This document shows, one piece after another, positions 3,254 through 44,311 of a stretch of DNA of 64,000 nucleotides (positions are counted from its first letter, which is position 1; each line of letters opens with the position of its first letter). The notes beneath the pieces are model-generated. The model was given only the letters and a program-made list of their open reading frames with translations, did no database searches and was not told the DNA's origin. Source of the stretch: a virus; IMG/VR virus record IMGVR_UViG_3300044529_000082, positions 1 through 64,000 of that record. One strand, given 5' to 3'. The translations under genes were made by a program, and so were the position numbers.

Positions 3254-3921
3254 AAGCTTTTCCCTACCTCAGAGTTTCCGGCAAGACGCAAGTAGAGGGC
3301 GACGGTCCGGAGCGCCAGCTCGAAAAGATTCGCACCTTTTGCATTCGGCACGACCTGCCGGAGTCGGTCGAGCGAACATTCGATGCTGGCGTCTCCGGGA
3401 CGATTGACGGTTTAGACAGACCCGCGCTAGCAGAGCTGATGACTAAAATGCAGCCCGGCGACGCAATCGTTGTTGAGCGCATGGACCGGCTCGCGCGCGA
3501 TTTGCTAGTGCAGGAACTTCTGTTAGCGGAATGCCGCAAGCGGAATTTTCTCGTCTATGCCGCGGACAATGAACTGGCGGACATGGCCAGCAATGAAGGA
3601 GACCCTACGCGGGTGCTGATTCGCCAGATTCTTGGCGCGGTCGCGCAGTGGGAGAAATCGGTCATTGTGGCCAAATTGAAGGCGGGCGCAGACAAGAAGC
3701 GGCGCGAGACCGGCCGGTGCGGCGGAGTGGCTCCCTATGGAGAACTGCCGGGCGAGAAGGAGATTCTGGCGTATCTTATCGAGCAGCATCGGATAGGGGA
3801 GTCTCTGGCCAGCATTGCTGCATCGGCCAATATCATCGGATTTTTGACACGGTCGGGTAAACATTGGTCAAAGCAGCGAGTGCATAATGCAGTCGCTAGA
3901 CACACTGGAGCAAAACTATGA
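3250..3921 (+). CDS. Serine recombinase (resolvase catalytic domain plus short recombinase-type DNA-binding domain)
   Basis: YLRVS catalytic Ser, DAGVSG, RPAL, VERMDRLAR, and a C-terminal SLASIA...TRSGKHWS segment. Confidence 0.9.
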   Translation: MKAFPYLRVSGKTQVEGDGPERQLEKIRTFCIRHDLPESVERTFDAGVSGTIDGLDRPALAELMTKMQPGDAIVVERMDRLARDLLVQELLLAECRKRNFLVYAADNELADMASNEGDPTRVLIRQILGAVAQWEKSVIVAKLKAGADKKRRETGRCGGVAPYGELPGEKEILAYLIEQHRIGESLASIAASANIIGFLTRSGKHWSKQRVHNAVARHTGAKL

Positions 3922-4351: not shown

Positions 4352-4684
4352 ATGCAAGTTTTTGCTTTTTACGACCCGGCGGACCCGCACCCGCTAACGC
4401 GGCTCTGGATTAAGTCTTGGGCCGCCCGGGGCTGGGTGCCAAGGCTGATTCTGCCATCCGATACGGAGCGGCTGACGCTCAGGCAAGCGGCGAACCGGCT
4501 AGGCGGCGGACTTCTGGTTACCGCTGCGACGATAAATTTCTCGCGCGGTCCCAGAAAGAAGCACTTCAAAACTACAAAGGCGCCGGACGTTACCGGCGAC
4601 GTGGTAATTTTTGAGCGCGGCCCGCTAGGGATAGAGAAGACGGAGGAAGACGTATTGCATTGCGGCAGGACCCTCGAATGCTGA
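4352..4684 (+). CDS. Hypothetical protein, possibly a glycosyltransferase-like fragment
   Basis: LWIKSWAARGWVPRLI resembles the N-terminus of phage GT-A-like proteins. Confidence 0.5.
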   Translation: MQVFAFYDPADPHPLTRLWIKSWAARGWVPRLILPSDTERLTLRQAANRLGGGLLVTAATINFSRGPRKKHFKTTKAPDVTGDVVIFERGPLGIEKTEEDVLHCGRTLEC

Positions 4685-13662: not shown

Positions 13663-14396
13663 TGCCTGGAAAATTGCTAATCGCTCTACAGTTTTGGGAC
13701 GGAGACCGAGCCCAGGCCCTCGAATTGTCCAGATTCTTGGCCGACTTGGAACCCAAGCATTGTGATTTAGCGGATTTGGTGCTGGTGCATAGGAAAGATT
13801 GCCGCGCGCCGAGCGAGGTAATCTCGCACGTGTCACGAAAGTTCAATACGCGCATTTATCACAGCCAAAAAAGCGAAGTCGGATGGCCGCAGGGCTGCAA
13901 TGCGCTCATGGAAGCGACCCTTGAATGGGCCTATTGCCTCATGGACGCGAACCGGCTCCCTCGATACAAGGCGATTTTCTTGTGTGAGGCGGACGGGGGA
14001 CCCGTTTCCCGGGACTGGATTGCCAAAATGTCGAACGCGTGGGACGAAGCGAGCCGCCGCAAGCCGGTCGTCATCGCCGGTCCGCTAGTTTACGGCCCCT
14101 CGGAGCACATAAACGGCAACTGTATGCTGACCGGCGACCTGAATTTCCTCCGCTGGATGGTCCGCGGCCCCCGGCAGCACACCGCGGGCGGATGGGACTA
14201 CGTTATGTGGCCGATTTTCAAGCAAAAAGGTGCTGCAAATATTCTCGGCATGCGAAGCTATTACGCCACGCCGCATTTTTCGCTCGAACAGTATCACCAG
14301 ATGCAAAATGAGGACTTGATTTGGTGCCATGGCGATAAATCGGGAGATTTAGTTAAATGGGGGAGACAGGAATTGCTGAATTATCCAAACCTATGA
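13662..14396 (+). CDS. Putative glycosyltransferase (GT-A-like)
   Basis: GWPQGCN, FLCEADG (ExD), HINGN, GGWD, terminal HGDK; lies within the sugar cluster. Confidence 0.55.
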   Translation: MPGKLLIALQFWDGDRAQALELSRFLADLEPKHCDLADLVLVHRKDCRAPSEVISHVSRKFNTRIYHSQKSEVGWPQGCNALMEATLEWAYCLMDANRLPRYKAIFLCEADGGPVSRDWIAKMSNAWDEASRRKPVVIAGPLVYGPSEHINGNCMLTGDLNFLRWMVRGPRQHTAGGWDYVMWPIFKQKGAANILGMRSYYATPHFSLEQYHQMQNEDLIWCHGDKSGDLVKWGRQELLNYPNL

Positions 14397-15316
14397 ACAA
14401 AAATAGCACAGTTTTTGTGACAGGGCATCGCGGACTCGTGGGGAGCGCCGTTTGCCGCGCGCTTACCGCCCAGGGCTTCACAAACATACTCACGGCGACG
14501 CGCCAGGAGGTAGATTTGAGCGACCCCGTTCGGACCGAGACATTTTTTCACACCCGGCGACCGGAATACGTGATTCACTGCGCGGCCAAAGTGGGCGGCA
14601 TCGTTTTTCACTCGAATAATCCGGTTTCGGCCATGTCCGAGAATCTTTTCATCAACGAAAATGTGATTCACTCCGCGGCTTGCACGAACGTAAAGAAGCT
14701 TTTGTTTCTGGGGTCCGCGTGCGCCTATCCCAGGCTAGCGGAAGTCCCAATCAAAGAGTCTTCACTGCTCTCCGGCTCGCTTGAGCCGAGCAACGAGGGG
14801 TATGCGCTGGCTAAAATTGTCGGCATCCGCCTGTGCCAGTATTATAAGCGCGAGCAGGGCAAGAATTTCATTTCGTGCATGCCCACGAATGTTTATGGGG
14901 TCGGTGATAATTACGATTTGAATAATTCTCACGTGCTGCCTGGAATGATGCGGCGCATGTATGCATGCAAGCTCGAAGGCGCGGCGGTAAAGCTGTGGGG
15001 AACCGGGACGCCCACGCGTGAATTTATTTTGTCGGACGATTTGGCACGCGCCTGTCTAGTGCTGATGGAAAAATATGATGGGGAGGAAACGGCGAACATC
15101 GGCACCGGCGACGAAATCGCGCTCTCTTTTCTGGCGAAGCAGATAGCACGAACAATTGGATTTGCGGGCGAAATCAAGTGGGACCACTCGAAGCCGGACG
15201 GAACGCCCCGGCGGTTTCTCGACTCCTCGAAAATTTTTCAGCTCGGATGGCGACCGCAGGTAACCTTAGAAGCGGGGATTAAACTGGCGTATGAGGACTT
15301 TTTACAGAGGATATAA
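14393..15316 (+). CDS. fcl: GDP-L-fucose synthase
   Basis: [60 protein letters not shown]. Confidence 0.95.
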
Positions 15317-15318
15317 AA

Positions 15319-16275
15319 ATGAGCAAACGAGCTTTTGTTACCGGGCTTACTGGCCAGGACGGGGCGTATTTAGCCAAACTTTTATTGGACAAGGATTACG
15401 AAGTTCATGGACTGATTCGCCGCTCCAGCGTGGACAATCTCTCACGGTTGGGTCCTCTGGCGTCCCAGTTGCAGCTACACTATGGAGACCTGGGCGACTC
15501 TGGCTCGCTGGTTCGGGCGCTACGGAAAGCGCAACCCGATGAGGTTTTCAATCTCGGGGCCATGTCACATGTCGGCGTATCGTTCGACAACCCCGAATAT
15601 ACGGTGGACGTGACTGGCGCCGGAGCTATCCGTCTGCTCGAAGCGGTTCGCGACACCTGCCCGAACGCGCGCTTTTATCAGGCCAGCTCCTCCGAAATGT
15701 TCGGCTCGACCCCGCCGCCTCAGAACGAGGAAACCCCGTTTCATCCGCGCAGCCCTTACGGATGCTCGAAGGTATTCGCCTATTGGGCCGCCGTGAACTA
15801 TCGAGAGTCCTACGGCATGTTCGTCAGCAATGGGATTCTGTTCAACCACGAGAGCCCCCGGCGCGGCGAGACTTTTGTTACGCGCAAAATTACGCGCGCG
15901 GTCGCCAATATCCACCTGGGCCGACAAAATAAGCTCCTGCTCGGGAATCTGCGCGCCCGGCGAGATTGGGGATTCGCGGGAGATTTCGTGAACGCAATGT
16001 GGCTGATGCTCCAGCACGACACACCGGACGATTTCGTGGTCGCGACGGGCGAAATGCACACGGTCGCTGAATTCTGCGAGGCGGCTTTTAGTGTCGTGGC
16101 CCTCGACTGGCGCGAACACGTTCAGTCTGATGCGGCGCTGTTTCGCCCGGCCGAAGTGGACGCGCTCCAGGGAGACAGCACGAAGGCCCGGCAGCTCCTG
16201 GGATGGCAGCCTAAAGTCAGCTTTTCTGAACTGGCCAAAATGATGGTCGAATCCGATATTGAATCGCTCGCATGA
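15319..16275 (+). CDS. gmd: GDP-mannose 4,6-dehydratase
   Basis: [59 protein letters not shown]. Confidence 0.97.
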
Positions 16276-20052: not shown

Positions 20053-20276
20053 TGACAATTCAAGAGCATCATGTCCCCATAATTGCATCCGCGAATCTCG
20101 GCCTGGGTGGACTGTCCGTTCTGGTTTCTCAAATCGTCCCGCATCTTGCCACTATCGCGGTGCTGTTGCAGATAGCCGTGGCCGCGGTTTCGCTATGGCA
20201 GATGCTCAAGAAAAAATCGACCAATGAAAAAAACGTTCCCACAAATCCCGAAAGCCCGAAAACTAAATCCGATTGA
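20052..20276 (+). CDS. Holin-like small membrane protein
   Basis: Two hydrophobic segments and a basic C-terminus (KKKS). Confidence 0.5.
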   Translation: MTIQEHHVPIIASANLGLGGLSVLVSQIVPHLATIAVLLQIAVAAVSLWQMLKKKSTNEKNVPTNPESPKTKSD

Positions 20277-21468
20277 ATTGCGCGGTTCGACGGCTTGGCT
20301 AGGACTCACAAAAGGAAAGCGAACCCAGATAGACGCTGAAGACTTAGGTCGCGTAGCCGCCTTTCGGTGGAGCGTATCTTTGGCGGGTCCAGGAAAGCCT
20401 TACGCCAGGACGGCGTCCTCTGGCGAATCGATAGCGATGCATAGAATGCTGGCAGGAGCCTCTGCGGGAATGGACGTGGACCACATAAACGGAGATACGT
20501 TAGACAATCGAAAAGAAAATCTTCGGGTGAGCACGCACGCAGAAAACTGCCGTAATCAAAAACCAAGAGCCGCGCATGGTCTCAAGGGGGTCTCGTTTAA
20601 GCCCGCCGATAGCTCAGGAAAGCCTTGGGCAGCCACTTTGCATCTGGGGCATTTTTCTACAAAAGAATTGGCAGCCAGGGCTTATGACAAGGCCGCCGTG
20701 TTTTTCTGTGGAAAATTTGCTAGATTGAATTATCCAATAGCACTAGGTATTCTAATGCTGGGACTTACTGGTTGCGGAATTTTGCCTAAACGTGTAGAAT
20801 TTTTTCAGGACAAGGTCCAGAGGTTTCCTGTCCCGGCATCTAAGCAAATAGAATTGCAGCGCGAGGTAGCGCGCAAGGCCAATGACAAGGCAGCGGAGAC
20901 CCTGCATCAAGCCATCAAAGAGAATTCGAGCCCCACGCTCTTGGTGCCCGCGGCAGAGACCGAGAAATTAACGGCTGCGGTAGCGGAATCAGTCGGCGCT
21001 CCTGCCAAATCACCGGCCAAGCTGGAAACGGACGCGCTAATCACCGACCTGCGCGCGCAGATGGCGAAGCTCGATAATAAGGTGACGGAGTTCGTGAAAG
21101 ACAACAATGAAAACGCCGGAAAAAAGATTGAGGGAACGGGTCTGGTTCAAGTTCCTTATTTTGCTTGGACTGGCGGCATCCTGGTTTTTCTTCTTGTTGG
21201 CTGGTATATTCTGCGGACTGTGGCTGGGGCAGCCGCATTGGCCAACCCCGGAGCTGCCGTGGGTGTTGGTGCGATGAACGTCGCGGGCTCAGTTGTCAGC
21301 AAAGCTTTTCAGCAGGTTGTTAAAGGCGGCGAGGAGTTCAAGGACTGGGTAGGCAAGGAAATCAACGACCCGGCGCTAAAGCAAAAAGTTTTGGACGCGT
21401 TTACCGCCGCGCACAAGGAAACCCAGGACCAGGATGTTAAGAGCTTGGTGGACCACGTAATCAAATAA
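20224..21468 (+). CDS. HNH-AP2 endonuclease fused to a lipoprotein (spanin-like) with a C-proximal TM segment
   Basis: MHRM...VDHINGDTLDNRKENLR, AP2 segment AARAYDKAA...FARLNYP, then IALGILMLGLTGC lipobox, coiled coil and TM. Confidence 0.7.
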   Translation: MKKTFPQIPKARKLNPIELRGSTAWLGLTKGKRTQIDAEDLGRVAAFRWSVSLAGPGKPYARTASSGESIAMHRMLAGASAGMDVDHINGDTLDNRKENLRVSTHAENCRNQKPRAAHGLKGVSFKPADSSGKPWAATLHLGHFSTKELAARAYDKAAVFFCGKFARLNYPIALGILMLGLTGCGILPKRVEFFQDKVQRFPVPASKQIELQREVARKANDKAAETLHQAIKENSSPTLLVPAAETEKLTAAVAESVGAPAKSPAKLETDALITDLRAQMAKLDNKVTEFVKDNNENAGKKIEGTGLVQVPYFAWTGGILVFLLVGWYILRTVAGAAALANPGAAVGVGAMNVAGSVVSKAFQQVVKGGEEFKDWVGKEINDPALKQKVLDAFTAAHKETQDQDVKSLVDHVIK

Positions 21469-21471
21469 TTT

Positions 21472-22596
21472 ATGCCTGACGGAAATAACTGCACGAGCTG
21501 CGGAGACGGGGACCAAAATCCCAATCCGCTAGACGCGTGCACGCGAAGCTTCATGGGCTGCGACAACCCGTGCGCCATAACGCAGCAGAACACGGTCGCG
21601 TGTGAGTCTCTTCCCTCGCGCGTCGAGAACTTCACGAAGAACTTTTTCGGCGATGTCATTCGAACCGAAGTAAACGGTCAGGTCATTTGGTCGTTGCCGT
21701 GCGGGCTCGATATCGGCCTGCCGAGCAACCCGCGCGGCGCGGACGAAGGGCTCGCGTGCTATTTTCTGCGGCTGTTCAATGACGGTATCGTGGGCCTCAC
21801 CGGTCCCGCCGGGGCAGCGGGGGCTCAAGGTCCGGCGGGCCACAACGCTTACACCGTCACGCTCCAGGGATTCAACACCCCGGCGGTCGGCGGAAGTGTA
21901 ACGGTCTCGACATTCTACAATCCGGCCATGCTAGTGGGCGCCTACGTCCTAGTGGACACTTCGGGATGGTATATCATAACCGGCTCGAATGGCCTAGGCG
22001 TGCTCACTTTGCAACTCATTATCGCGGCGCCCGGCGCAGGATACACGACTGCGGGAAAGCTGGTCGTCCCCTCGGGGGCGCCCGGCCAGTCGATTACCGG
22101 CCCAAAAGGCGATATGGGAGATACCGGCCCGCGCGGCGGGGTCGGCCCGCAAGGCGCCACCGGCCCAAAGGGGGACACCGGTCCGGCCGGAGACAGCTTT
22201 CTCGCCAACAACGGCTATGTATCGGGCTCCGGCGGTAGCGACTTTAACATTCCGAACAACACATTTACCACGGTGAATTTTGGAACGGATTTCGGATTTG
22301 ACACCACCGCGCAGGGAACATATTTTGTGATTACAACGTTCGGAGTCGTCAACGGTTCTGCGTCTCCGGCGACCGCGACGTTCCAGCTTTTCAATGCAAC
22401 CGACTCAATTTCGCATCCGGGCTCGCAGTCTCAGGTTTATTTGCTGGCCGGGGAAGAGGCTTCCGTGACTGTCACTGACTTAATCGCTCCTACAGGAATA
22501 AATAAGCACATCGTATTGCAGGGGTCTTCGACAACGGCCGCAGCCAATTCAGTTGTCGCGGCGCACTCGGCGATGGTGCATTTCCAAATCGCGTAA
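21472..22596 (+). CDS. Collagen-repeat tail fibre protein 1
   Basis: G-X-Y tracts, Cys-rich N-terminal domain, beta-rich C-terminus. Confidence 0.7.
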   Translation: MPDGNNCTSCGDGDQNPNPLDACTRSFMGCDNPCAITQQNTVACESLPSRVENFTKNFFGDVIRTEVNGQVIWSLPCGLDIGLPSNPRGADEGLACYFLRLFNDGIVGLTGPAGAAGAQGPAGHNAYTVTLQGFNTPAVGGSVTVSTFYNPAMLVGAYVLVDTSGWYIITGSNGLGVLTLQLIIAAPGAGYTTAGKLVVPSGAPGQSITGPKGDMGDTGPRGGVGPQGATGPKGDTGPAGDSFLANNGYVSGSGGSDFNIPNNTFTTVNFGTDFGFDTTAQGTYFVITTFGVVNGSASPATATFQLFNATDSISHPGSQSQVYLLAGEEASVTVTDLIAPTGINKHIVLQGSSTTAAANSVVAAHSAMVHFQIA

Positions 22597-23751
22597 ATGA
22601 GCTGCAATCAAAATCCTCTTGACCCTTGCACTCGCAGCTTCATGCAATGCGATAATCCGTGCAACACTCACGAGCCGTGCAAGGAGTTGCTGCCGACCCA
22701 AATCGATACCTTTATCACGCAGTTTTTCGGGCAGCTTGGAAAGGCCAATTCAAACGGCTCTGTTGCATGGACGCTTCCCTGCGGATTAGACTCCGGCACA
22801 TCCGCGAATCCTCGGCAGGCAGGCGAGAGTTTGGCGTGCTATTTTCTCCGGCTCATGCAGGCCGGGCTGGCGGGAATCTCAGGTCTCCCAGGCGAGGACG
22901 GGCAGGCGGGCGTCCCCGGACCGGACGCCTTCACCTACACGGAGCAGGATTTTTCTCAGCCCAGTGTAGCCAGTCCCTACTTATCGGTGAAGCTGCATCC
23001 TTCCGCTTCGCTGGTAACCGGTCTATATGTGGAAATCGCCGGGTCGGGAATCTATCAGATTTTGAATCTCGCGGCGGACGGAACCGCGCTGCTTCAGCTC
23101 TTGACTGCGCTCGCCGCAGAGGGTTCTGTCATTCCTTCCGGCGCCACGGTCATAGCTTCCGGTTTTCCGGGCGTGCGTGTGCAAGGTCCACAAGGAGAAA
23201 AGGGCGACACCGGGCTTCAGGGGCCTCAAGGATTCATCGGCGCTACCGGGATAAAGGGCTCGCAGGGCGACCAAGGCGCCGAGGTTCCGTTAGTGAGTGG
23301 AAAATCGCTTTTTACTTCCGGCTCTTTTGTGGCCATTCCGAATACGGCTACCTGGGTCGCTCTGGCGTCTCCTCCTGATAGCCGATTTGTTGCGCCCACC
23401 ACAGATGCAGCGACGTATTTTGTCATATTCATATTGTTCCCCGGCTTGCTGGCCCAGGGAAGTTACCCTCCGGTCGCACACGGCGGTCTGCGGATGAAAA
23501 TCAAGAAATTTGATGGAGCGGTCGAGGTCGGAGACGAAGACGGAACACTGCGCTACTGGGAATATAACACCACCCAGATACCGATGCCGTCTGAGTTCGT
23601 TTTGCAGATTTATCGACAGTGTGTTATTCCTTTTTTTGCGGTAAATAACGCCGGAGAATCTGGAAACTGGATACCCTACTATTATAGCGAGGTTACCGGT
23701 GATGGTTACGCTGGGTCTAGGGGGTCCATGGCAATCTGGTTTAAATTATGA
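22597..23751 (+). CDS. Collagen-repeat tail fibre protein 2 (paralog)
   Basis: Shares NPLDxCTRSFMxCDNPC and LPCGLD...LACYFLRL with the upstream gene; G-X-Y tracts. Confidence 0.7.
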   Translation: MSCNQNPLDPCTRSFMQCDNPCNTHEPCKELLPTQIDTFITQFFGQLGKANSNGSVAWTLPCGLDSGTSANPRQAGESLACYFLRLMQAGLAGISGLPGEDGQAGVPGPDAFTYTEQDFSQPSVASPYLSVKLHPSASLVTGLYVEIAGSGIYQILNLAADGTALLQLLTALAAEGSVIPSGATVIASGFPGVRVQGPQGEKGDTGLQGPQGFIGATGIKGSQGDQGAEVPLVSGKSLFTSGSFVAIPNTATWVALASPPDSRFVAPTTDAATYFVIFILFPGLLAQGSYPPVAHGGLRMKIKKFDGAVEVGDEDGTLRYWEYNTTQIPMPSEFVLQIYRQCVIPFFAVNNAGESGNWIPYYYSEVTGDGYAGSRGSMAIWFKL

Positions 23752-34091: not shown

Positions 34092-34457
34092 ATGAATATG
34101 CTACTTATCTTGGCGGCGGGACTGTATATTTCGAGTAATCCGCAGTGGCGCGCTTTTCTGCGCGCGCTCCCCTGGTGGATATTTTTGCCCCTTGTGGCCG
34201 GTTTTTGGTCGCCCCTTGCCGGTTGGGTGCTGTTTATCCCACTCGCTGCCCTAAAATCGCTGCATTTAATTTTTACCAAAGGCCCGCGTATTTGTAAATC
34301 CGCGATTAAGGCAGTTCGAGGTTTTTGGAATGCGATGCGGCAGGGCGCCCAGAAGCGTCCAGAACGACCTTTTGCATGTTCTGGAATGTATCCCATTTTC
34401 GAGATTCGAAATCCCGACCACATTTCATTACCGACCCAAGCCAATGCCGTTCGTTGA
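34092..34457 (+). CDS. Small membrane protein (moron)
   Basis: Hydrophobic N-terminal half, basic C-terminus, own host-type promoter. Confidence 0.6.
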   Translation: MNMLLILAAGLYISSNPQWRAFLRALPWWIFLPLVAGFWSPLAGWVLFIPLAALKSLHLIFTKGPRICKSAIKAVRGFWNAMRQGAQKRPERPFACSGMYPIFEIRNPDHISLPTQANAVR

Positions 34458-37400
34458 CGAAAATAATCAGCCAGTTCAACTATCTCCCGAAGACCAAGCT
34501 GCCTATTGGCAGCAGAATCCCCCGGCGGGCGCCCTCGTCGATGAATCCGGAAAACCGATAAACGCACTGCGCGATTTGTCAGCCCCGGACCTAGCGGCGC
34601 TTTCCACTGACCAGAAAGACAAGTTCGACCTTCTTTCCGCGTTTAATGCGGACCCCGAAGCGCAGAAAAATCCGGACACTGTTCAAAAAGTCGCGGACGC
34701 TTTTCACATCCTGCGCGAGCAGCCGCTATTGACCGGCGTCACCCCCACTGGAGTAATCAAGAACGTTTGGAATACCTTTGCTGGGCTCGGGAGATACGGC
34801 GCCAAGACGGCTATTGGGACGGGCCAAATGGCAGAAAGCTTAGCCGCCCGCGCGCTCCCCGGAGATACCGCCGAAACTTTTGCAAATCAGACTGAGACGG
34901 CAGGAAGGCAGAATCTGGGAGAGACCGCCGCCGCCACTGAACAGGGAATGACCGGCCTCGTCACCGCCGCGACAAAAGTCGCCGCAGCGTTAGGCCGCGG
35001 ATTGCACCTGACTAAATCTCTTTCAGACTATTCTCCCGAAGACAAACGAAATGCGCTTTTCGATGCTGCCGCGGTTGCGCAGCAGGCCCAACAGACCGCT
35101 ACCGGGCAAGGCCCCATAGCGCAAGCCGTCACGGGCGGCGCCGTCCCTGTCCGACCCGAGGAAGTCAGCAAGCTCACTTCTCCGTTTGACTGGGAAGCGC
35201 TCGGCGGTTTGACCCGCGGAGCCGCCGCAGTCACTCCCGAAGTGCTGGGCTCCGCAAAGGCGGCCGCGGGCGAGTTACTCGCCAAAGGTGCGGGCAAAAT
35301 ATCTGACGTCGCTTCGCGCATCGGCGCGGGAACGGCGCGAGTCGCCGAAAAGGCCGCTCCAGTAGCCGCGGCAGTGGGCGTTCCGACATATGCTATTGCC
35401 ACGGGGGACGCGCATCTTTTGGCCGAGTCTCTGCTTTTCGGCAGCAGCGCGGGAGAGAAAGCCGCCGCCGTCGCAGAGAAGACTGCAAAGGGTCTGGATG
35501 CGGCTAGCAAGTTCGCAAAGCAGGTATCTGGAGAAGTGCCGGTAACTTCTGCATATGCCCAGGCGGCCCGTGATACGCTACTCGCGGCCCCGGCCGCGGC
35601 GGTAGAACTGGGCAAAGGCGCGGCATTCGATGTCGCAATGGCGTCTGGCGCCGACACTCCGCAAGAACGTCAAGCTGCCATCGGGCTGGGCACCGCGTTC
35701 GGATTACTCGGTGCCGCCAATATGGCCGGGCGGCACGTAATAAGCGGGCAGCTAATAGCCCCCCGGGGATATGACATTTCAATGCCAGTTTCGGGAAGCG
35801 GAAGATTTCCGGCGCTAGAAGCATTGCATAAAGACGCGTTTTCTCAGCTCGCGCCGGGGCAGCAGCAACGGCTAAATGCCGTGCGCTCTTTCTTAAAGAA
35901 GGCGTCCCCGAATACGGACGTTTTCGCCCTTGGCGAAGACCCCGCGGTGGTTTCTGATGCATTGCAGAAAACGGGGCTCTCTCCGGAGCAAGCAGACTTC
36001 TATTCCCAGCAGGCCGGTTTTAGCACAAAAATCGGGGACCGCAAAATAATCGGAGTTGCGGAACCCGGCGCGGCTCCGCACGAGGCTTTTCACGGAATCG
36101 AAGACGTAATTGGCGCAGCTAAAATGCGAGAGCTGGATGCCGTAACCAAGCAACAATACGCAGACCGGTGGAATGATTTCGGTCGGTATTATGCGCAACG
36201 GCTAACCGGTCAAGACCCTGGAGCTGATTGGAAAACCCCGATTCTCACTGCCTCGAAATGGGGGTCCGCTGACGCGGGCGAAAAGCTTTACCGAGAGACG
36301 GCAAATCAATATGTTTTAGAAGCTAAACGCAACGGCCAGCCGATGCCGACCGAGCAAGAGATTCGAGACGCCGTGAATCTCAGCGCTCCTCGTCTTCCGG
36401 ATGGAACGGTGGATTGGCAAAAAGTGCTTACCCCGGCTGAGCAGCAAGAAACGGCAGACCGCTATATTGCCCGAGAAAAGCTCGCTGAAAATTTCGATGC
36501 CTTTTTCAAGCACGCCGGGCCAACGCTTGAATCCGGCAAACAGGTGCCCGAGAAGATTGCCCAGATAATGGGCCAGATGATGCAGTTCTTTGGCGTAAAT
36601 CCGCTAGCGGGTCGCGCCAGCGAAGCGCTGCACGTGCCGCTGAATCCAGACGTAATTAAGGCCGTGTCCGAAGCTGGGCGCGGGGCAATCCCCGAAGCTC
36701 CAGAGATAGCGTCTAAAACTCTAAGCGCGCCGTCCCAGTCCCGCGCGCCGATGCCCGTAACTCCGCAGCAGCAGCAAGAGGCCGCCGACGAGGCTCGTCA
36801 GGCTGCCGCCGCCGCTCCTACTACTCCCGTTGCGGGCGGCACGCAATCGCCTCGGGAGATTCTGGGCGCAATCGCGGAGTCTATTGCTAGCCGAACCGGA
36901 ATCAAGCTGAATTATCTCTCGGCCCCCGATGAACCGGCGGCCGCAATTTCGATGAATCGAAAGGTCCGGCGCGCGCTAATTGAGGCAGGCCGAACCATGA
37001 GCGCCGCGGGAAAATCGCTGTGGGAAAAAAGCTTTTTCCCTGAGCGAGTCATCCAAAACAAGAACGGCTCTTTTCAGGTCTCGGGCTGGGCGCCGGAGGT
37101 CTTTGCAGCCAATGTTCACAGAACGGCGCAGGAAGTTAGCCAATTAGGGCATCCGCAACTGGTGCCCTATCCGCTGGACCCAAAGACCGGTTCTCTTACT
37201 CCGGATGGTTGGCGCCAGCTATACGAAGACACGCAGAAAGCGGTCCGCAATTACGTGGGCGGCTACACCGCATCCGGCGAGGATTTGGTGGTTCCTCGGT
37301 CCGCGGTTGCCGCTGGCGCGTCAAAGCCGCCAGTCCGCGGCGCCGCGGAAGCGTTAGACCAGAATAAAGCGGATTTCATCAATGCCATGTTCGGGATAAA

Positions 37401-40400
37401 GCTCCCGAAGACTCCTCGAATTTCTACCAAAGAGCTTGGATTACCGACCGCGATTGTAGGCGAGGATATCAGCCGGGCCACTCTTCCAGGCCGCGTGCAG
37501 CCGCCGATAGTCCCGCGCGGAACCTTTGAGGGGCCGAAGGCAGAAGCGCTCGGCATCGCGGGGCGCCCGATAATGGAAGTCAACCCCTGGCGCAATCAGG
37601 CAGAAGCCGCGGGCTTTGATTCGTCGAAGCTAATCGAAGCGCGCCAGAATCTCAACGTTGACAACATCAAAGACGTTGCGATGACCCCAGAGCAGCCGCA
37701 GTTCCGTGGGAATACTTTGACCCTTCAAGCCGGATTCATGCCTGCCGAAATCTCTCCCGAGAAAGAGGCCAGTATCCAAGAGCGAATCGCCCGGGGAATC
37801 CCTCCGGCGAATATCCGCCTGTCTATTTTCAATGACCCGTCGCTGCCTGAAAAATATCATGGGGTCCAGGTGGACGAAGTTGACCCGAGCGCTCCGCCCG
37901 GACAACGGAATATCTTTTCGAGCAACCCGGAAGACATGCGGCGGCTTGGATATGACATGCCGACGACCCAGGAGCTGCTCAAGCTGCCTTTTGGGCAGCA
38001 CACCCTGGCGGACGCGAAGAAAGTTCTTGGCGGCAAAGAACCGACCGGCCAGTTTAGTCCTGCCGACACGGCCGGAGTAACGAATCAAAGCGACGTTCGA
38101 GAAGCCCGCAAGGCGTGGCGCGAGCAAGGCGTCCAGTCTCCATATTTCAAGCGGTGGTTCGGTGACAGCAAAGTGGTGGACGAGAGCGGGGGACCGCTGG
38201 TTATCTATCATGGCACTACGCATAACTTTGACCGCTTCGCCAACGTCCGCGGAAATCCAGAAAACTCGCTGGGCATAGGGCACTATTTCACCACGGACGA
38301 AAACGATGCTTCTGGAAACTACGGCACTACAACGAGCTCGGATTTGAATTCGCGACTTGAGTGGCGTGTTGACCAGTTGATTGGTGAGGATATGCCCGAG
38401 GCTGCGGCCAGAAAACAGGCTCGCCGGGAACTGGTAGGCCGCACAGAAAAGGTAATTCCTGCGTATCTGAAACTGGAAAATCCGGTAGTGCTCGACCCGA
38501 AAGGCGGCACGCATTTCAATTACGATTACGACGAGAGCACCGGCCAAGAGTCGGGAACTTCAGTTGACCTTTACAATGAATTAATGCGGCTCGGGGCCGA
38601 GCACAAATTCGACGCTCAATCGGTGTGGAACGACATCACTGAGAATGGGGCGGATGACCTAAAAGCGTATGATATTTGGAAGGAGATTAAGGATTCGGAT
38701 GCCATGCTGGACGCGACCGATGAAAATGGAAATCAGCTCAGCTCAGAAATCGCGCGGCAGCTTTTTGAAAACCTGGGATACGACGGAATAGAGCTCGCCA
38801 ATCCGGCCGACGAGTATCAGGGGATGCGCCTCGACCCCGACACCAAGCACTACGTCGCTTTCAATTCTGAGCAGGTCAAAGGCGTTGAAAATCGCGGGAC
38901 ATTTTCTCAACAGGACCCGCGTTTTCAGTTCCTTCCTTCGGATGAAAATCGCGAAGAGGAATCAGTGCCCAAAACGTTTATTGTCCGTCACGGCAGCACC
39001 GAAATGAATAATGCGGACCCCGCGAAAGATTTGATACGCGGGCATCTTGACGTGCCTTTGGACGATAAGGGAAAGAAGGAGGCCAAAGAGACCGCCGCAA
39101 AGATTGCCGAGCAAGGCGGAGTCTCGCACATCGTCGCCTCGGACCTGGGCCGCACGCTCCAGACCGCTGCGGAGATTTCCAAGGCGACCGGCGCCACGAT
39201 TGAACCGGACCCCGGCTTACGCCCGTGGAAGCTGGGACCGACAATCGAGGGCCATCCAACCTCGAAGATGCTGCCGAAAATTGCGGAGCTTACCGACAAT
39301 CCCGACACCCGTCCTCCGGGCGGAGAAACCTTCAACGAATTCAAGGACCGTTTTCTGTCCGCATGGAACCGCATCCAGGCCGAGCATCCGGACAAAAATA
39401 CAGCCGTGGTGACGCATTATCGAGGCACTAAGCTGCTCGACGCATGGCGCGCGGCTGGCGTGGATAACAACGAAATCGACAAAGGGGTTTTCGAGACTTA
39501 CGACAAGAACAAAAAGCCGGGGCACGTGGACGTGGTTGACAAGACAGGAAACGCCTTTTCCGGCGCCCCGGCTAAAGAAACTCCCGCCGCTCAATTTGCC
39601 ACTCGAAAAGCCAAGCAGGATTACGAATTCAAAGAGTCGCCCGGCTCATTGTTCAGCAAGGCGTGGGTTCTTCCTAACGGAAAGATTGTCCAGCTCGGGG
39701 GCAAGTGGCACCATGAATGGGTGAACGAAAATCCGGAAGTGATGAAGCAATTCGGTCTGAAGAAAACCACGAGCGGAGAAGAGAACCGCGTGGATGCTCT
39801 GAAAAGAGGGTTCGCGCGCGTCAACTACGAGCGGAATACCGGCACGCTGAAGGTAGAAGCCCGCGCGCAAGACTGGGCTCGGCTATCCCCATCGATTAAA
39901 GAAATGGTCCGGGCCAACCTGGGGCGAGTCGATAACATGGACGTGCATTTGCTCGACGATAAAGCGCAGAACATCGTCGAGCAGGACGGGGTCGCACTGC
40001 ACACCTATGACCCCGAGGAGCGCATGGACCACATTCCGCTGATTACGGAACCCAGTGCCACGACTACATTTTCTCCGCAGAGCTCGGCAGAATCTAACCG
40101 CGGCGCTCAGTTTATGCCCGAGACCCGCTGGTACGGGCAAGAGCGGGAAGGCGAAAAAGAGCATAGGTGGGACGCGCTAAGTAATTCTATTTTACATCCT
40201 GACATGCGAACCCCTGCCAATGAAGGGGAGGCCCCAGAGGTTACTTTAGAGGCTCTAAAAAAAGAGGGGTATAAGACGGTGGACTGGGCCGAGACACCTA
40301 CCTTTCACGACCATACAACGCGAGCCGTTTTCTATAAGAACGACCGAGGACGATTCCCTTTATCTGAAGAGGGGGTTCGCAAGGCATCGGAAGCCGCGAG

Positions 40401-43400
40401 GCAGCAGGAAAAAAAAGTGCAGGCCATTGCGTATCCGCAAGATTCAGACGTCCAATTTATGCCCGGCGGAGACGCCAGAGCAATCAAAGCAGCCGCTATT
40501 CGTGACCCAGAGACCGGCAAAGTCTATGAAGGCCCGATGCACTTCATGGCGCGGCAGAACTACATCAAGGAACACCCCGGCTTCGACCCGATGAACTTTT
40601 TCAAGTTCGAAGAGGGATTCACCGATAACGGGGACCGTTTTCTGAGCCGCACGCAAGCCTTCGAGCGGGCCAAGGAACTGAAGCAGCTGAAGCCGGTGGT
40701 TGGGGCCAATCAAAAAAACGCCGAGCAGACGTATGACAAGCTCGGGCAGCTGGCCAGTGAGCGAACGCAATTAGCGCAATTCTTTCCCATGCAAAAAGGC
40801 GAAGGACCGGACGAAGTTTTACGAACCGCAAGAAAATTCTGGGTCACCAACGGAGGGGAGACGCGCCCTGCTTGGGGCACGCATGCGCATCAGGCGGCGC
40901 AAGAAATTCTTGGAGACTGGAAACCTAAGGACCCCGAAAACGCAGGTCCCGAAACGAACGAAGAGGCCATCAGGCGCGGGCATGTTCGGGGCGTATATCG
41001 GATGTATCCGCACATGCTGGATTTGAACGGCAGGCCTTGGTCCGAGCTTTCGGTTCCTGCGCAAAAAGAAATAAGGCGACTATCTCAGAGCTTAGCGCTT
41101 CCGACAGATTACAATGGACGTCCCGTTGACACGGGCGTGGGTCCGTTTCCGCTCGACTCAGAAAACGTCCAATTTATGCCCGGCGGAGACCCTCGCGCGA
41201 TTCGCGCCGCGGCAATCCGCGACCCGGACACCGGCGAAGTCACCGAAGGGATGGCGCACTTTTACGCGCGTATGAAGCATTCCGAGGAGCACCCCGGGAT
41301 GGGCCCGTTCAATTACTTCAAATTTCAAGAGGGCTTCGTGGACAACTCCGGGAATTTCCTCGACCGAGTCCAAGCGTTCGAGCGCGCGAAAGAGCTGAAT
41401 CAGCTCAAGCCCGCCGCTACTCCAGGCCAGAAAGATTTGCATGAACAGTTTGACCGGATGGGCAAACTGGCCGCGGAACGGGTGGCGACATCCCAGTTTA
41501 TGCCTAGCCGAAGAGAGGCAGACAACATTAAAGACGAAATCGAACCGCTTTTTCAAAAGCACGGTATGTCTTTAGACGTGGTTGGGTCTTTGTCAAAAAA
41601 ACCTGAAGGAAACGACATCGATTTTCATTTGCGGCCTGAAAAATCGGGCGCCACTATTGAAGAACAAATGGGGTCATTTTACGACCATATTGCGCCAGAG
41701 CTAAAAAAACAAGGATGGGACCTTCGTGATACCAACAATCCTCGGGATTATGTCCATCCTGTTCGCGGCAAAGAGTGGTTCGTTTCGGCGGACGACCCTA
41801 AAGGTAATACTGTTGAATTTTTTATGTCAGGGCCTGAAGGATTCGACAGTGCTCAATTTAGACCCGGTGCGGCGCCGGAGGAATTCAAGGACGAAAAAAC
41901 GCTGCCCGCCGCTTTGACAAAACCAAACTGGGCCGTGCTCACCGCAACCCAGGAATCGCTCGGCGCGGGGACCGACAAGGTAAATCAAGAAGCCAATCGG
42001 CGCCTGGAAAAAGAACTAAAGGCGGCCGGATTCAACCCAATTCCGGTCAAAGGGAATTACAAAGGCGTTGACCAGGGCATGAATTATTTGGTCACTGGAA
42101 TGACCCCGGACGAAGCAGTCGCCTGGGGTCGGAAATTCGGCCAGGAATCTGTTCTCACTCCGCGCGGGCTGCTTTATGGGGACGGCTCGCTTAGCCCGGC
42201 CATTCCGGAAGAAACCACAATCGGAGACCGGGCCAAAAAACAGGATTTCTATTCTCAGATTGAAGGCGGCCCCGCGTTCAGCATGGGCATCGACTTCGGC
42301 AAGCGGGTCCCGGCTGCAATTGATACCGGCGCACTCCCCGGGTTCGAGGGCGAAATCGGCTCGCCCAAAACGCGTGCCCTATCTACCGTCGAGAAGGGCA
42401 ACATGACGATGAAGCAGCTCGGCGAGCAGTTCCCCGAAGCTGTGGTCCCGCGGAAGAAGGACGAAGCAATTCCGTCCAAGATTACCGAGTCTCCGCTTTA
42501 CAAACAGGCCGGTAGTGAAGAGAACGCGGTTAAAGCTTTTGCAAAACGGCTTGTCGATTTCGCCAAGCAGTATAAGGACCATCCGGCGTTTGAAGACGGA
42601 AAAACGTGGTATGACCACATCGCGCCGAAAATCAAAAAGCACTTTGGCAAGACCGGACAGCTTTTTGCCGAAATGCTGGCGGCCACTTCGCCGGGCCAGA
42701 AGCCGGACACGAATTTTGCTGATGCGCTGGCGGCACATGACATGGCCGTCGCGGGCAAGTATGACAAGCAAGTCAAAAAACTCGTCCAGGGCCTCGACAT
42801 GATTGAAAAAGACACGTGGCGCGGCTGGCTGACAAAGCACGGAACAGACCTGCCCGAGACTCCCACGCCAGAGACTTTTCTGGGCCAGTGGATTGATTTT
42901 CACGACCTCAAGCCGCGCAAGGAAAACGGCGCGCTTTACGGTTACAATTCCGTGCAGGTGCTCAAGGTTGCCGCGCGCAAGTGGCTTTCTGAGGCGGGAC
43001 CTAAGACGAGCAATTTCATCCAGAACCTGCTCGGCACGGGGCACGAGGCGACGATTGACCTTTGGGCAGACCGCACCATGCGATGGGCCGGATACGAGGG
43101 CGCAAAAGACCGCTGGCGGATTCTGCCGGAGAACAAGTCCGGGGTATCAGACGAGGATTTCGCTTTCGCGCAGAAGGCATTTTCGGCCGCCGCTAAAGAG
43201 CTTGGAATGCGCCCGGACCAGCTCCAGGGCGCCCTGTGGTTCGCCGAAAAGCAGCGTTGGGCGGACAACGGCTGGTCTCCGCTCGACCTAGGGACCTACG
43301 AACCAGAATTCGCGAAAATCGAGCAACGCCGTGCGGGCGCGCGTCAAACCGCCGCCATCAAGCAGCAGGCGAAAAAGGCCGCTCCGGCATTGACAGGAGA

Positions 43401-43446
43401 GCAAATCGGGTTTAACCTGGGGCCGGACATGATACAACCAAAATGA
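34444..43446 (+). CDS. Giant polyvalent ejection protein (~3000 aa) with zincin peptidase, ADP-ribosyltransferase, histidine phosphatase, nucleotidyltransferase, DUF3293-like and HhH-glycosylase-like domains
   Basis: PHEAFH (HExxH); FKRWFGDSKVVD..G.PLVIYHGT...GHYFT...YDGI...VAF (ART-PolyVal); RHG...SDLGR...VVTH; VGSL..NDIDF; WYD...AATSP...GPKT..F..N...TIDLW...LQGALW. Confidence 0.85.
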   Translation: MPFVDENNQPVQLSPEDQAAYWQQNPPAGALVDESGKPINALRDLSAPDLAALSTDQKDKFDLLSAFNADPEAQKNPDTVQKVADAFHILREQPLLTGVTPTGVIKNVWNTFAGLGRYGAKTAIGTGQMAESLAARALPGDTAETFANQTETAGRQNLGETAAATEQGMTGLVTAATKVAAALGRGLHLTKSLSDYSPEDKRNALFDAAAVAQQAQQTATGQGPIAQAVTGGAVPVRPEEVSKLTSPFDWEALGGLTRGAAAVTPEVLGSAKAAAGELLAKGAGKISDVASRIGAGTARVAEKAAPVAAAVGVPTYAIATGDAHLLAESLLFGSSAGEKAAAVAEKTAKGLDAASKFAKQVSGEVPVTSAYAQAARDTLLAAPAAAVELGKGAAFDVAMASGADTPQERQAAIGLGTAFGLLGAANMAGRHVISGQLIAPRGYDISMPVSGSGRFPALEALHKDAFSQLAPGQQQRLNAVRSFLKKASPNTDVFALGEDPAVVSDALQKTGLSPEQADFYSQQAGFSTKIGDRKIIGVAEPGAAPHEAFHGIEDVIGAAKMRELDAVTKQQYADRWNDFGRYYAQRLTGQDPGADWKTPILTASKWGSADAGEKLYRETANQYVLEAKRNGQPMPTEQEIRDAVNLSAPRLPDGTVDWQKVLTPAEQQETADRYIAREKLAENFDAFFKHAGPTLESGKQVPEKIAQIMGQMMQFFGVNPLAGRASEALHVPLNPDVIKAVSEAGRGAIPEAPEIASKTLSAPSQSRAPMPVTPQQQQEAADEARQAAAAAPTTPVAGGTQSPREILGAIAESIASRTGIKLNYLSAPDEPAAAISMNRKVRRALIEAGRTMSAAGKSLWEKSFFPERVIQNKNGSFQVSGWAPEVFAANVHRTAQEVSQLGHPQLVPYPLDPKTGSLTPDGWRQLYEDTQKAVRNYVGGYTASGEDLVVPRSAVAAGASKPPVRGAAEALDQNKADFINAMFGIKLPKTPRISTKELGLPTAIVGEDISRATLPGRVQPPIVPRGTFEGPKAEALGIAGRPIMEVNPWRNQAEAAGFDSSKLIEARQNLNVDNIKDVAMTPEQPQFRGNTLTLQAGFMPAEISPEKEASIQERIARGIPPANIRLSIFNDPSLPEKYHGVQVDEVDPSAPPGQRNIFSSNPEDMRRLGYDMPTTQELLKLPFGQHTLADAKKVLGGKEPTGQFSPADTAGVTNQSDVREARKAWREQGVQSPYFKRWFGDSKVVDESGGPLVIYHGTTHNFDRFANVRGNPENSLGIGHYFTTDENDASGNYGTTTSSDLNSRLEWRVDQLIGEDMPEAAARKQARRELVGRTEKVIPAYLKLENPVVLDPKGGTHFNYDYDESTGQESGTSVDLYNELMRLGAEHKFDAQSVWNDITENGADDLKAYDIWKEIKDSDAMLDATDENGNQLSSEIARQLFENLGYDGIELANPADEYQGMRLDPDTKHYVAFNSEQVKGVENRGTFSQQDPRFQFLPSDENREEESVPKTFIVRHGSTEMNNADPAKDLIRGHLDVPLDDKGKKEAKETAAKIAEQGGVSHIVASDLGRTLQTAAEISKATGATIEPDPGLRPWKLGPTIEGHPTSKMLPKIAELTDNPDTRPPGGETFNEFKDRFLSAWNRIQAEHPDKNTAVVTHYRGTKLLDAWRAAGVDNNEIDKGVFETYDKNKKPGHVDVVDKTGNAFSGAPAKETPAAQFATRKAKQDYEFKESPGSLFSKAWVLPNGKIVQLGGKWHHEWVNENPEVMKQFGLKKTTSGEENRVDALKRGFARVNYERNTGTLKVEARAQDWARLSPSIKEMVRANLGRVDNMDVHLLDDKAQNIVEQDGVALHTYDPEERMDHIPLITEPSATTTFSPQSSAESNRGAQFMPETRWYGQEREGEKEHRWDALSNSILHPDMRTPANEGEAPEVTLEALKKEGYKTVDWAETPTFHDHTTRAVFYKNDRGRFPLSEEGVRKASEAARQQEKKVQAIAYPQDSDVQFMPGGDARAIKAAAIRDPETGKVYEGPMHFMARQNYIKEHPGFDPMNFFKFEEGFTDNGDRFLSRTQAFERAKELKQLKPVVGANQKNAEQTYDKLGQLASERTQLAQFFPMQKGEGPDEVLRTARKFWVTNGGETRPAWGTHAHQAAQEILGDWKPKDPENAGPETNEEAIRRGHVRGVYRMYPHMLDLNGRPWSELSVPAQKEIRRLSQSLALPTDYNGRPVDTGVGPFPLDSENVQFMPGGDPRAIRAAAIRDPDTGEVTEGMAHFYARMKHSEEHPGMGPFNYFKFQEGFVDNSGNFLDRVQAFERAKELNQLKPAATPGQKDLHEQFDRMGKLAAERVATSQFMPSRREADNIKDEIEPLFQKHGMSLDVVGSLSKKPEGNDIDFHLRPEKSGATIEEQMGSFYDHIAPELKKQGWDLRDTNNPRDYVHPVRGKEWFVSADDPKGNTVEFFMSGPEGFDSAQFRPGAAPEEFKDEKTLPAALTKPNWAVLTATQESLGAGTDKVNQEANRRLEKELKAAGFNPIPVKGNYKGVDQGMNYLVTGMTPDEAVAWGRKFGQESVLTPRGLLYGDGSLSPAIPEETTIGDRAKKQDFYSQIEGGPAFSMGIDFGKRVPAAIDTGALPGFEGEIGSPKTRALSTVEKGNMTMKQLGEQFPEAVVPRKKDEAIPSKITESPLYKQAGSEENAVKAFAKRLVDFAKQYKDHPAFEDGKTWYDHIAPKIKKHFGKTGQLFAEMLAATSPGQKPDTNFADALAAHDMAVAGKYDKQVKKLVQGLDMIEKDTWRGWLTKHGTDLPETPTPETFLGQWIDFHDLKPRKENGALYGYNSVQVLKVAARKWLSEAGPKTSNFIQNLLGTGHEATIDLWADRTMRWAGYEGAKDRWRILPENKSGVSDEDFAFAQKAFSAAAKELGMRPDQLQGALWFAEKQRWADNGWSPLDLGTYEPEFAKIEQRRAGARQTAAIKQQAKKAAPALTGEQIGFNLGPDMIQPK
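40448..41190 (+). repeat. 26-bp exact direct repeat (40448-40473 and 41165-41190) opening a duplicated ~105-aa domain
   Basis: ACGTCCAATTTATGCCCGGCGGAGAC occurs twice. The downstream protein copies are clearly paralogous. Confidence 0.9.
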
Positions 43447-43627: not shown

Positions 43628-44311
43628 ATGGCCGACATCGACATTCAGCCCCGAGAACCCGCCGGTGCGATGGCAACGCCGCCCCCGGCGCCGCCGTCTC
43701 CTTCTGACGCCGCACCCACGCCCACACCCGAGCAGGCACAACCAGAGCAGCCAGAGCAGCCAGCCGCGTTACCTCCCGAATTGCTGGAAATACCCGCCAT
43801 CCAGGGCCTTGTTGCGGGCGCCCCGGCCGCCGTCTCGATGGATATCAGCCAATTTGCCAAAACAGAGCCCGGAAAGCTGATTGCGGCCAACTCGGACGAC
43901 ATGCAGCAGGCCGGAATGGGGTTCTACCACTCGATAAAGGGCGATATCGGGGTGATTTTCAATCAGCTTCACGTGCATCCGGCCGACCTTCAGGCGGCCG
44001 ACAAAGCGGGAAAGCTGACGTCTGTGGCGCCGCCGTGGTCCAAGGTTGACCATGCCCTATCTAAAGCCGGTGCCGCGCACCCCGCGCTGGGGCACCGCGG
44101 CGCTCCGACCGGGCCGCCTATGGCAACACCGCCTCCGCCGCCCCAGGCAGCAACTGGGGTCATCCAGACACCAGGGAAGCCCCTTCCTGCCGCTGCTCAG
44201 AATAAACTACTTCAGGCGCGAATCGCGGCTACGCAGCCAGTGGCACCTACTGGGGGGCCTGCCCCGGGGCAGTCTCAGCTCCTGAATCGGGTCCTGCGGC
44301 CCATAGTTTAG
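43628..44311 (+). CDS. Pro-rich late protein
   Basis: ORF behind the late motif; last + strand gene. Confidence 0.65.
   Translation: MADIDIQPREPAGAMATPPPAPPSPSDAAPTPTPEQAQPEQPEQPAALPPELLEIPAIQGLVAGAPAAVSMDISQFAKTEPGKLIAANSDDMQQAGMGFYHSIKGDIGVIFNQLHVHPADLQAADKAGKLTSVAPPWSKVDHALSKAGAAHPALGHRGAPTGPPMATPPPPPQAATGVIQTPGKPLPAAAQNKLLQARIAATQPVAPTGGPAPGQSQLLNRVLRPIV

Follow-up and report, generated by a model that had tools for sequence, protein, structure and literature searches.

A Q-F-x-P peptide recurs at the module joints of a giant, putatively polyvalent phage protein carrying a zincin-like domain

The DNA analysed here, hereafter the window, is the 64,000-nucleotide stretch covering positions 1 to 64,000 of the IMG/VR virus record IMGVR_UViG_3300044529_000082, which derives from an uncultured phage. 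Translation of the window revealed an open reading frame (ORF) at 34330-43446 on the plus strand that encodes a giant protein of 3,038 amino acids (aa); the database gene call for this ORF, P0002, starts at Met39 (nucleotide, nt, 34444), is 3,000 aa long and is 100% identical. In the second part of this protein a short peptide, Q-F-x-P or a close variant of it, is found at one module joint after another: GFMP at aa 1135, QFSP at 1241, QFLP at 1533, QFAT at 1755, QFMP at 1927, 2042, 2281 and 2389, QFFP at 2150 and QFRP at 2509. An earlier reading of the bare sequence, referred to below as the original prediction, had listed these ten motifs, and all ten lie in frame in the ORF at the nucleotide positions it had named, as does the HExxH that it placed upstream of the array (nt 36079-36093, aa 584-588).

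The protein has a three-part build consisting of an N-terminal core of ~1,130 aa, ~10 exchangeable enzyme modules and a conserved C-terminal DUF7178 module. The N-terminal core is vertically inherited and is made up of an Ala/Gly-rich region, a zincin-like HExxH...E domain and a WYL/Sm-like domain. The features of the locus, in window coordinates, are the following.

34444..35736 (+), N-terminal Ala/Gly-rich region, aa 39-469, conserved in the family and without a Pfam match
35767..36699 (+), zincin-like HExxH...E domain, aa ~480-790, assigned from invariant residues, an AlphaFold2 model and the VIA structural search
36808..37716 (+), second conserved domain of the N-terminal block, aa ~827-1129, containing a WYL/Sm-like beta-barrel (VIA)
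37732..37743 (+), junction 0, GFMP, end of the vertically inherited N-terminal block
37744..38049 (+), module A, aa 1139-1240, without a family match
38050..38925 (+), junction 1 (QFSP) and ADP-ribosyltransferase module, ART-PolyVal at aa 1284-1523
38926..39591 (+), junction 2 (QFLP) and histidine phosphatase module, Pfam 2e-31, fold at aa 1546-1744
39592..40107 (+), junction 3 (QFAT, Thr for Pro) and module X, of the KAWIxPxG...WHH type
40108..40452 (+), junction 4 (QFMP) and module Y, poorly predicted and with few relatives
40453..40776 (+), junction 5 (QFMP) and AAIRDP module, copy 1
40777..41169 (+), junction 6 (QFFP) and module Z, without a family match
41170..41493 (+), junction 7 (QFMP) and AAIRDP module, copy 2
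41494..41853 (+), junction 8 (QFMP) and possible Pol-beta-type nucleotidyltransferase module, from a residue pattern and weak leads
41854..42339 (+), junction 9 (QFRP) and DUF3293 module, from Pfam
42340..43443 (+), decayed junction (GFEG, near aa 2671) and conserved C-terminal DUF7178 module
43628..44311 (+), conserved downstream gene, 227 aa, Pro/Ala-rich, with IQPR at residues 5-8

Analysis of the giant protein with Pfam gave matches above the cut-offs for ART-PolyVal (aa 1284-1523, 3e-15) and His_Phos_1 (aa 1550-1700, 2e-31) and, in the C-terminal part, for DUF3293 (aa 2548-2608) and DUF7178 (aa 2888-2973), every one of these matches being placed between two motifs. The ADP-ribosyltransferase, the histidine phosphatase and the DUF3293-like domain of the original prediction are borne out by these matches, the phosphatase also by its fold, which aligned with PhoE (1h2e) at Z 19.9 over 184 residues. 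The duplication of the AAIRDP domain was likewise upheld, the two copies being identical at 64 of 108 residues, and the proposed HhH-glycosylase-like domain found no confirmation, since Pfam names that part DUF7178. As to the Pol-beta nucleotidyltransferase proposed for 41494-41853, aa 2389-2508 contain the pattern hG[GS]...DhD, which we take to be a nucleotidyltransferase signature, and weak language-model leads (0.85-0.87, NTP_transf_2) point the same way, but Pfam returned no match, and the module is possibly an enzyme of this type. When ten segments were searched separately against Pfam at E<=1, nothing was returned for module A, AAIRDP copies 1 and 2, module Z, the nucleotidyltransferase-like module and the N-terminal region, and only sub-threshold matches (E 0.04-0.09) for modules X and Y; module X is the commonest variable module across the family. 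NCBIfam, run on the whole giant protein, added only phosphatase models under their cut-offs. No polymerase domain was found in the giant protein, and at the DNA level a blastn search with 37000-43446 matched none of 50,697 phage records. PF26092 matches are precomputed for several relatives. The Ala/Gly-rich region contains one weakly hydrophobic stretch at ~aa 449-467.

By sequence criteria the giant protein qualifies as a phage-type polyvalent protein with a zincin-like domain. It combines many unrelated domains, at least 11 modules having been delimited and hallmark domains lying above the Pfam cut-offs, and it is encoded in a phage genome next to virion genes, the window also containing a terminase large subunit, collagen-repeat fibre-like genes, a weak virion-protein match and a DNA polymerase.

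Composition predicts 0.44 QFxP in the giant protein, whereas eight are present (Poisson P(>=8) = 2.2e-8); the most that any of 20,000 residue shuffles gave was five. All eight sites are downstream of aa 1134. The consensus derived from 131 sites is [A/G/V/T/S]-Q-F-x-P-[K/S/R], with flanks rich in E, P, G, K and D. Alignments of homologous modules revealed that Pro is the most conserved column and that Q or F can be replaced (QAQP, QMQP, KFQP, RYMP, GFQP). In the family alignment the conserved N-terminal block always closes with G-F-x-P, of which G and F are invariant and P nearly so. Relatives carry a QFxP 9-17 aa ahead of the point equivalent to the decayed GFEG of the window protein.

Eighty proteins were retrieved when aa 1135-3038 served as the query in a word-indexed search; ~38 of them share the N-terminal 1,100 aa and, in most cases, the C-terminal DUF7178, and differ in the middle (radical SAM, GNAT, methyltransferase and others). 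Relatives of the giant protein lie on contigs of ~68-75 kb. The 39 close members, with that of the window included, together contain 136 QFxP versus 12.7 expected, 131 of them after aa 1100, and 25 of the 39 have at least three. The 41 other polyvalent proteins (P0041-P0081) contain no QFxP in 26 cases, one in 13, two in one and three in one, and the protein with three, P0042, itself matches the HExxH profile; an unsupervised scan of these 41 for junction tags found none comparable and only domain-internal repeats such as YH.T. From metagenome contigs 35 loci were recovered, 17 of which have at least three QFxP in the giant ORF and nine none; six of these nine are pieces with little or no array (five run off the contig end and L035 comprises 56 aa). 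Loci in which the giant ORF is short (L008, L022, L002) have no C-terminal module, and this ORF is followed there by the usual downstream gene.

Searching a profile of the HExxH domain against 1.84 billion representatives (E<=1e-3) gave 187 cluster representatives; among the 150 matches listed, the domain is located at ~aa 370-680 in all full-length proteins, and the exceptions to giant size are a few short fragments. New representatives with a length of 1,500 aa or more number 104, and 45 of them contain at least three QFxP. In many of the remaining ones a sister tag (xFQP, xFLP, xFMP, xFEP, FQxP or QxQP) tops the over-represented tetrapeptides, and the most distant clade has xFLP in 5-9 copies. 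The family comprises ~140 metagenomic giant proteins with one common HExxH...E domain and, by these counts, presence of the motif tracks this family. A separate observation is that the tetrapeptide x-T-P-E is over-represented in many of P0082-P0214 (6-13 copies versus ~0.5-1.3 expected), which may be a helix-capping habit.

The position of the motif relative to folded domains was read from two AlphaFold2 models, of which model 1 covers aa 470-1140 (family alignment of 31 rows, mean predicted local distance difference test score, pLDDT, 85.7) and model 2 aa 1525-2160 (42 rows, mean pLDDT 75.3). In model 1 the GFMP is within a terminal segment of pLDDT <50 (model residues 665-671). Model 2 contains three confident domains, namely the phosphatase, module X and AAIRDP; four of its five motifs (aa 1533, 1755, 1927 and 2150) are in segments of pLDDT <50, and the fifth, at aa 2042, is in a block of mean 54 immediately ahead of a domain with pLDDT of at least 90. 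The phosphatase fold at aa 1546-1744 fits between the motifs at 1533 and 1755. Module Y (aa 1927-2041) is poorly predicted, so that its borders rest on homology only. According to both models the motifs lie in disordered linkers between folded domains, at the domain boundaries where they had been expected and not inside the folds.

The motif also marks the places at which the array has been rearranged. BLAST alignments of the window protein with its relatives fall into blocks bounded by motifs, for example 1241/1242-1536, 1547-1740, 1755/1757-1930/1932, 1927-2049, 2042-2120, 2150-2294, 2281-2360 and 2508/2509-3038. The ADP-ribosyltransferase module, second in the array of the window (after junction 1/module A), is late in P0003, P0004 and P0005. 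When all pairs are pooled, Q is the commonest block start (65 at offset 0) and P the commonest block end (66 at offset +3). Within -3..+6 of a motif lie 17.4% of the 1847 starts and 15.0% of the 1789 ends, compared with 3.1% of random points; the motif itself aligns, and the sharpness of these endpoints is therefore partly built in. Whole-module differences with most breakpoints on the motif were also found in the near-identical pairs P0101/P0104, P0003/P0004 and P0117/P0118, the first of which is 96% identical over 1,271 aa with lengths of 2,319 and 3,212; an exception is a breakpoint in P0104 28 aa ahead of the tag. Gain, loss and permutation of modules at the motif are well supported, and the suggestion that the motif delimits the unit of module exchange holds, since relatives do swap modules at these points.

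The coincidence of rearrangement breakpoints with the motif could also be taken to mean that the motif is a recombination scar, or a DNA microhomology serving cassette exchange, with no function as a peptide. Against this, codons at 99 motif sites match the background (CAA/CAG 45/55 versus 42/58, TTC/TTT 47/53 versus 55/45), all four Pro codons are used, and the flanking DNA is unrelated between different joints of one gene, which leaves no DNA identity to drive recombination. The peptide, moreover, is kept across proteins whose N-terminal blocks are only 25-50% identical. Background codon usage together with unrelated flanks indicates selection on the peptide and not on the DNA, and a purely DNA-level joint is very improbable. 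Gene conversion or DNA-level repeats at the joints were rejected on the same grounds of codon usage and unshared flanking DNA.

Analysis of the x residue revealed that it tends to be uniform within a protein (87 same-x pairs versus 36.6 +/- 5.4, 0 of 5,000 shuffles) and that x at the first junction predicts x at later ones (119 of 316 versus 70 +/- 8.3, 0 of 5,000 shuffles); for lineages whose first x is not Q, 30 of 123 match versus 12.7 +/- 4.3 (2 of 5000 shuffles). Variants are paired, GFAP occurring with QFAP, GFKP with QFKP, GFEP with QFEP and GFQG or GFQA with FQAP, and whole lineages employ FLP, FMP, FEP, FQAP or QAQP. On a FastTree phylogeny of the HExxH domain the dominant x forms clusters yet changes frequently, 49 times versus 62.7 when shuffled, with 0 of 200 shuffles as low; the x labels came from a crude cut, some being wrong (e.g. 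P0019), and only the overall result is used. The bias of x is real but loose, and it suggests one reader per lineage. The anatomy of the tag and its evolutionary behaviour are firmly established.

The candidate reader is the zincin-like domain of the N-terminal core. Its H584, E585, H588 and the downstream E716 (nt 36475-36477) are invariant in 27 sequences, and the HEHE signature is present in 117 of 140 family members. In model 1 beta strands are followed by the HExxH helix and by a later helix with the Glu, which is the zincin order. The VIA structural search returned lethal factor (Z 6.2, 158 aligned), the lethal-factor-like domain of Certhrax (Z 6.2), the Pro-Pro endopeptidases (PPEPs) PPEP-3 (Z 5.8, 161 of 215) and PPEP-2 (Z 4.6) and collagenases (Z 4.2-5.0), scores which, being under 8, may reflect only a common arrangement. 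M34 is the family name of the lethal factor and Pro-Pro endopeptidase zincins. A complex prediction with the HExxH alignment, Zn and a junction segment of 40 aa (aa 1907-1946), made without controls, gave 0.02 and 0.04 (mark 0.32) and is neutral on binding. The second domain of the N-terminal block resembled PafBC (6sj9_B, Z 9.3, 85 aligned, root-mean-square deviation 2.2), BrxR (Z 8.1) and CapW (Z 7.8) in the same search. In defence regulators the WYL/Sm-like fold of this second domain serves to bind ligands or single-stranded nucleic acid.

The reading that we prefer, with a probability of about 45%, is that the giant protein is a self-processing effector polyprotein which is cut at its joints by its own zincin. 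The motif would be the recognition and cleavage site of that domain. The chain would be made, and probably packaged, as a single unit, and its joints would be cut in the capsid or after ejection to give separate enzymes. Only arrangements with an intact site between modules would work, and in this way module changes would become fixed at the motif. That the chain is cleaved, packaged and ejected, which protease acts and which bond is cut are all parts that we infer; for packaging and ejection we argue by analogy with N4 vRNAP and with phi24B gp47, a giant protein that the available account of phi24B describes as detected by virion proteomics, and from the location of the gene in the late structural arm. 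As to the bond, the account of Pro-Pro endopeptidases in PMC12828418 has them cutting between prolines and reading P3-P3', which makes a cut next to the near-invariant Pro plausible, as a lead only. A cut after Pro perhaps fits the fold neighbours and the near-invariant Pro at least as well as the cut between F and x drawn in the original prediction.

Sites resembling the motif are also found at the ends of the chain and of its neighbour. The giant protein terminates in MIQPK (43429..43443, +), a terminal hydrophobic-x-Pro-basic motif, and the conserved downstream gene begins with M-x(2-5)-hydrophobic-hydrophobic-[E/Q/D]-Pro (loci L002-L034; 43628-43654 in the window). The terminal peptide may be half a junction site or a docking peptide, and the Pro/Ala-rich downstream protein is possibly a further substrate or a partner. 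A bolder form of the preferred reading, which we find rather doubtful, is that these soil-type phages possess a true polyprotein with a lineage-tuned, proline-directed code, F-x-P-[K/R/S], and that a zincin within the chain, similar to lethal factor and the Pro-Pro endopeptidases, reads this code. That zincin would yield ~10 free enzymes and trim the C-terminus of the giant chain and the N-terminus of the neighbour at half-sites, and the code would set the grammar of module swapping. If such a cleavage code existed, any counter-defence module flanked by the tag could be plugged in anywhere in the array.

Several observations weigh against self-processing by the zincin. HDxxH replaces HExxH in 10 of 140 members (P0039, P0017, P0192, P0195, P0201, P0204, P0207, P0210, P0211 and P0212), all but P0039 and P0017 belonging to the most distant clade, and nine of the ten keep 2-9 junction-like sites, which means that either Asp suffices as the base or the HExxH domain is not the reader. 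The x position of the window protein is tolerant (S, L, M, M, F, M, M, R) and later x equals that of the first junction in just 38% of sites. One boundary has QFAT and another only the decayed GFEG, so that cutting is not required at every joint. The modules were never encoded as separate genes among the downstream ORFs of seven loci, and no cleavage product, terminus or split gene was seen. Hydrophobic-x-P-[R/K] stands 0-5 residues from the stop in ~20 of 29 complete giant proteins (counted by eye), and a cut at the extreme C-terminus would gain little, which favours a binding role there. Added to the low Z scores above, Foldseek of the HExxH model against the PDB returned nothing at E<=1e-3, a hidden Markov model profile of the domain against PDB sequences returned only HflK at E 0.047, taken as chance, and the Pfam MPTase-PolyVal model did not match the domain. 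Lacking a Pfam or PDB sequence match, the domain is not filed as a member of the lethal factor or PPEP group; it may still work alike.

Part of this evidence suits an alternative in which the motif is never cut and acts as a docking, hinge or threading element for packaging or for stepwise ejection of the intact chain, its reader being the capsid interior, the portal or tail channel, the WYL/Sm-like domain or a chaperone. The peptide at the C-terminus of most relatives and at the N-terminus of the downstream protein suits binding better than cutting, the HDxxH variants keep the motif, and the lineage bias of x suits any lineage-specific reader. The best-studied giant virion protein with an MPTase domain, N4 vRNAP, is moreover packaged unprocessed according to the passages on N4 in PMC5512222 and PMC13492108, and the latter describes modules with flexible linkers that may ease passage through the ~30 A tail tube. 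On the other side, no candidate binding partner was identified, the tag that precedes each folded module, flanked N-terminally by a small residue and C-terminally by a basic residue or Ser, has the look of a protease site, and the zincin is the only conserved catalytic candidate in the invariant core. We consider an uncut element unlikely.

The persistence of the motif in the HDxxH variants would equally be accounted for if the joints were cut by a head-maturation protease of the phage or by a host protease, the HExxH domain having another role, for example on host proteins or on the cell wall. Prohead proteases of the T4 and phiKZ type do cut many packaged proteins at a short consensus, and the authors of the phi24B work, in the account available, propose a cell-wall role for the gp47 metallopeptidase. 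Pfam and PHROGs scans of the other window ORFs, however, recognised no prohead or other protease, although one could be hidden, most ORFs being without any match. Outside the giant protein just one QFxP falls within a long genuine ORF of the window (nt 32973); the few others are in short ORFs or antisense frames, and neither the capsid nor the scaffold candidates contain it. Motif presence also goes with the HExxH family. Cleavage by another protease is quite improbable, and the own zincin is kept as the preferred reader.

Other genes of the window have features of their own. The terminase large subunit (4660-7653) carries an intein with Hint and a LAGLIDADG homing endonuclease, and a complete ice-binding-like domain (PF11999, 8e-53) is encoded by a late-arm ORF (1355-2614). 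An ORF resembling serine recombinases/invertases (phrog_95, phrog_125) is found at 3070-3921 in a genome that otherwise looks lytic. At 14357-16275, in the structural arm, a GDP-mannose 4,6-dehydratase gene adjoins one of the epimerase/reductase type, and at 20224-23751 two ORFs with collagen-like repeats, probably encoding fibres, come after an ORF whose product has an HNH_3 endonuclease domain.

The junction tag has practical consequences. It supplies exact residues to mutate and exact termini to seek, and it amounts to a rule by which uncharacterised giant phage proteins can be parsed into functional units. An array joined by such tags might also serve, as a scaffold provided by nature, to deliver enzymes of choice in laboratory work with phages and their hosts.

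Comparison with known systems places the giant protein next to several others. In the polyproteins of picorna-, poty- and coronaviruses a protease within the chain cuts 3C-like sites at domain borders, and a conserved core is accompanied by lineage-specific flanks. A recurring short site at the borders and a protease in the same chain are common to those eukaryotic RNA virus polyproteins and to the protein described here, whereas the latter belongs to a DNA phage, has a zincin and not a Cys/Ser-type enzyme, carries exchangeable modules in place of a fixed replicase, and is only predicted to be cut at its joints. Packaged internal proteins of T4 and phiKZ are cut ahead of ejection at a short consensus, L/I-x-E and S/A/G-x-E respectively, but by a prohead protease distinct from its many substrate proteins; in the window none was recognised, and the motif is confined to one protein. 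In polymorphic toxins the VENN of CdiA and the PxxxxDPxGL of Rhs mark the border behind which toxin cassettes are swapped; those systems have one border, one C-terminal cassette and an immunity gene, whereas the present array has ~10 tandem borders and no immunity genes.

Lethal factor and the Pro-Pro endopeptidases (1yqy, 9g0j, 6fpc) share with the window domain the HExxH and the downstream Glu (Z 6.2, 5.8 and 4.6, 156-161 aligned). They differ in having no detectable sequence similarity to it, and the window domain has a long helical insert between HExxH and Glu; they are secreted toxins or adhesion-releasing enzymes and not parts of a polyprotein. N4 gp50, the vRNAP, as described in the sources cited for it, is similar in size (~3,000-3,500 aa), genome (~70 kb), MPTase-type HExxH and flexible linkers, the packaging and ejection being those of N4, and different in having a T7-like RNA polymerase core and remaining unprocessed, where the window protein has a variable enzyme array and a repeated tag.

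The closest likeness is to the polyvalent proteins, which since 2017 have been viewed as injected counter-defence cocktails, perhaps self-cut, with no site named. In Iyer, Burroughs, Anand, de Souza and Aravind 2017 (PMC5512222), processing by the MPTases of these proteins is proposed and a link to lethal factor is drawn; the passages of that text consulted here name no junction or cleavage motif, the text contains the word linker 0 times and the term cleavage site once, and the main texts of the literature searched yielded no paper naming such a motif of polyvalent proteins. Many unrelated enzyme domains (ART-PolyVal, phosphatase and DUF3293 among them) together with a HExxH...E zincin in a phage late region are shared with the proteins described there, and the strand and helix layout of the window domain is as described for their MPTases. 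What distinguishes the present family from the polyvalent proteins as presented in those passages is a defined peptide at the joints, which is kept over ~140 diverged relatives, drifts in step within each lineage and forms the boundary at which modules are exchanged.

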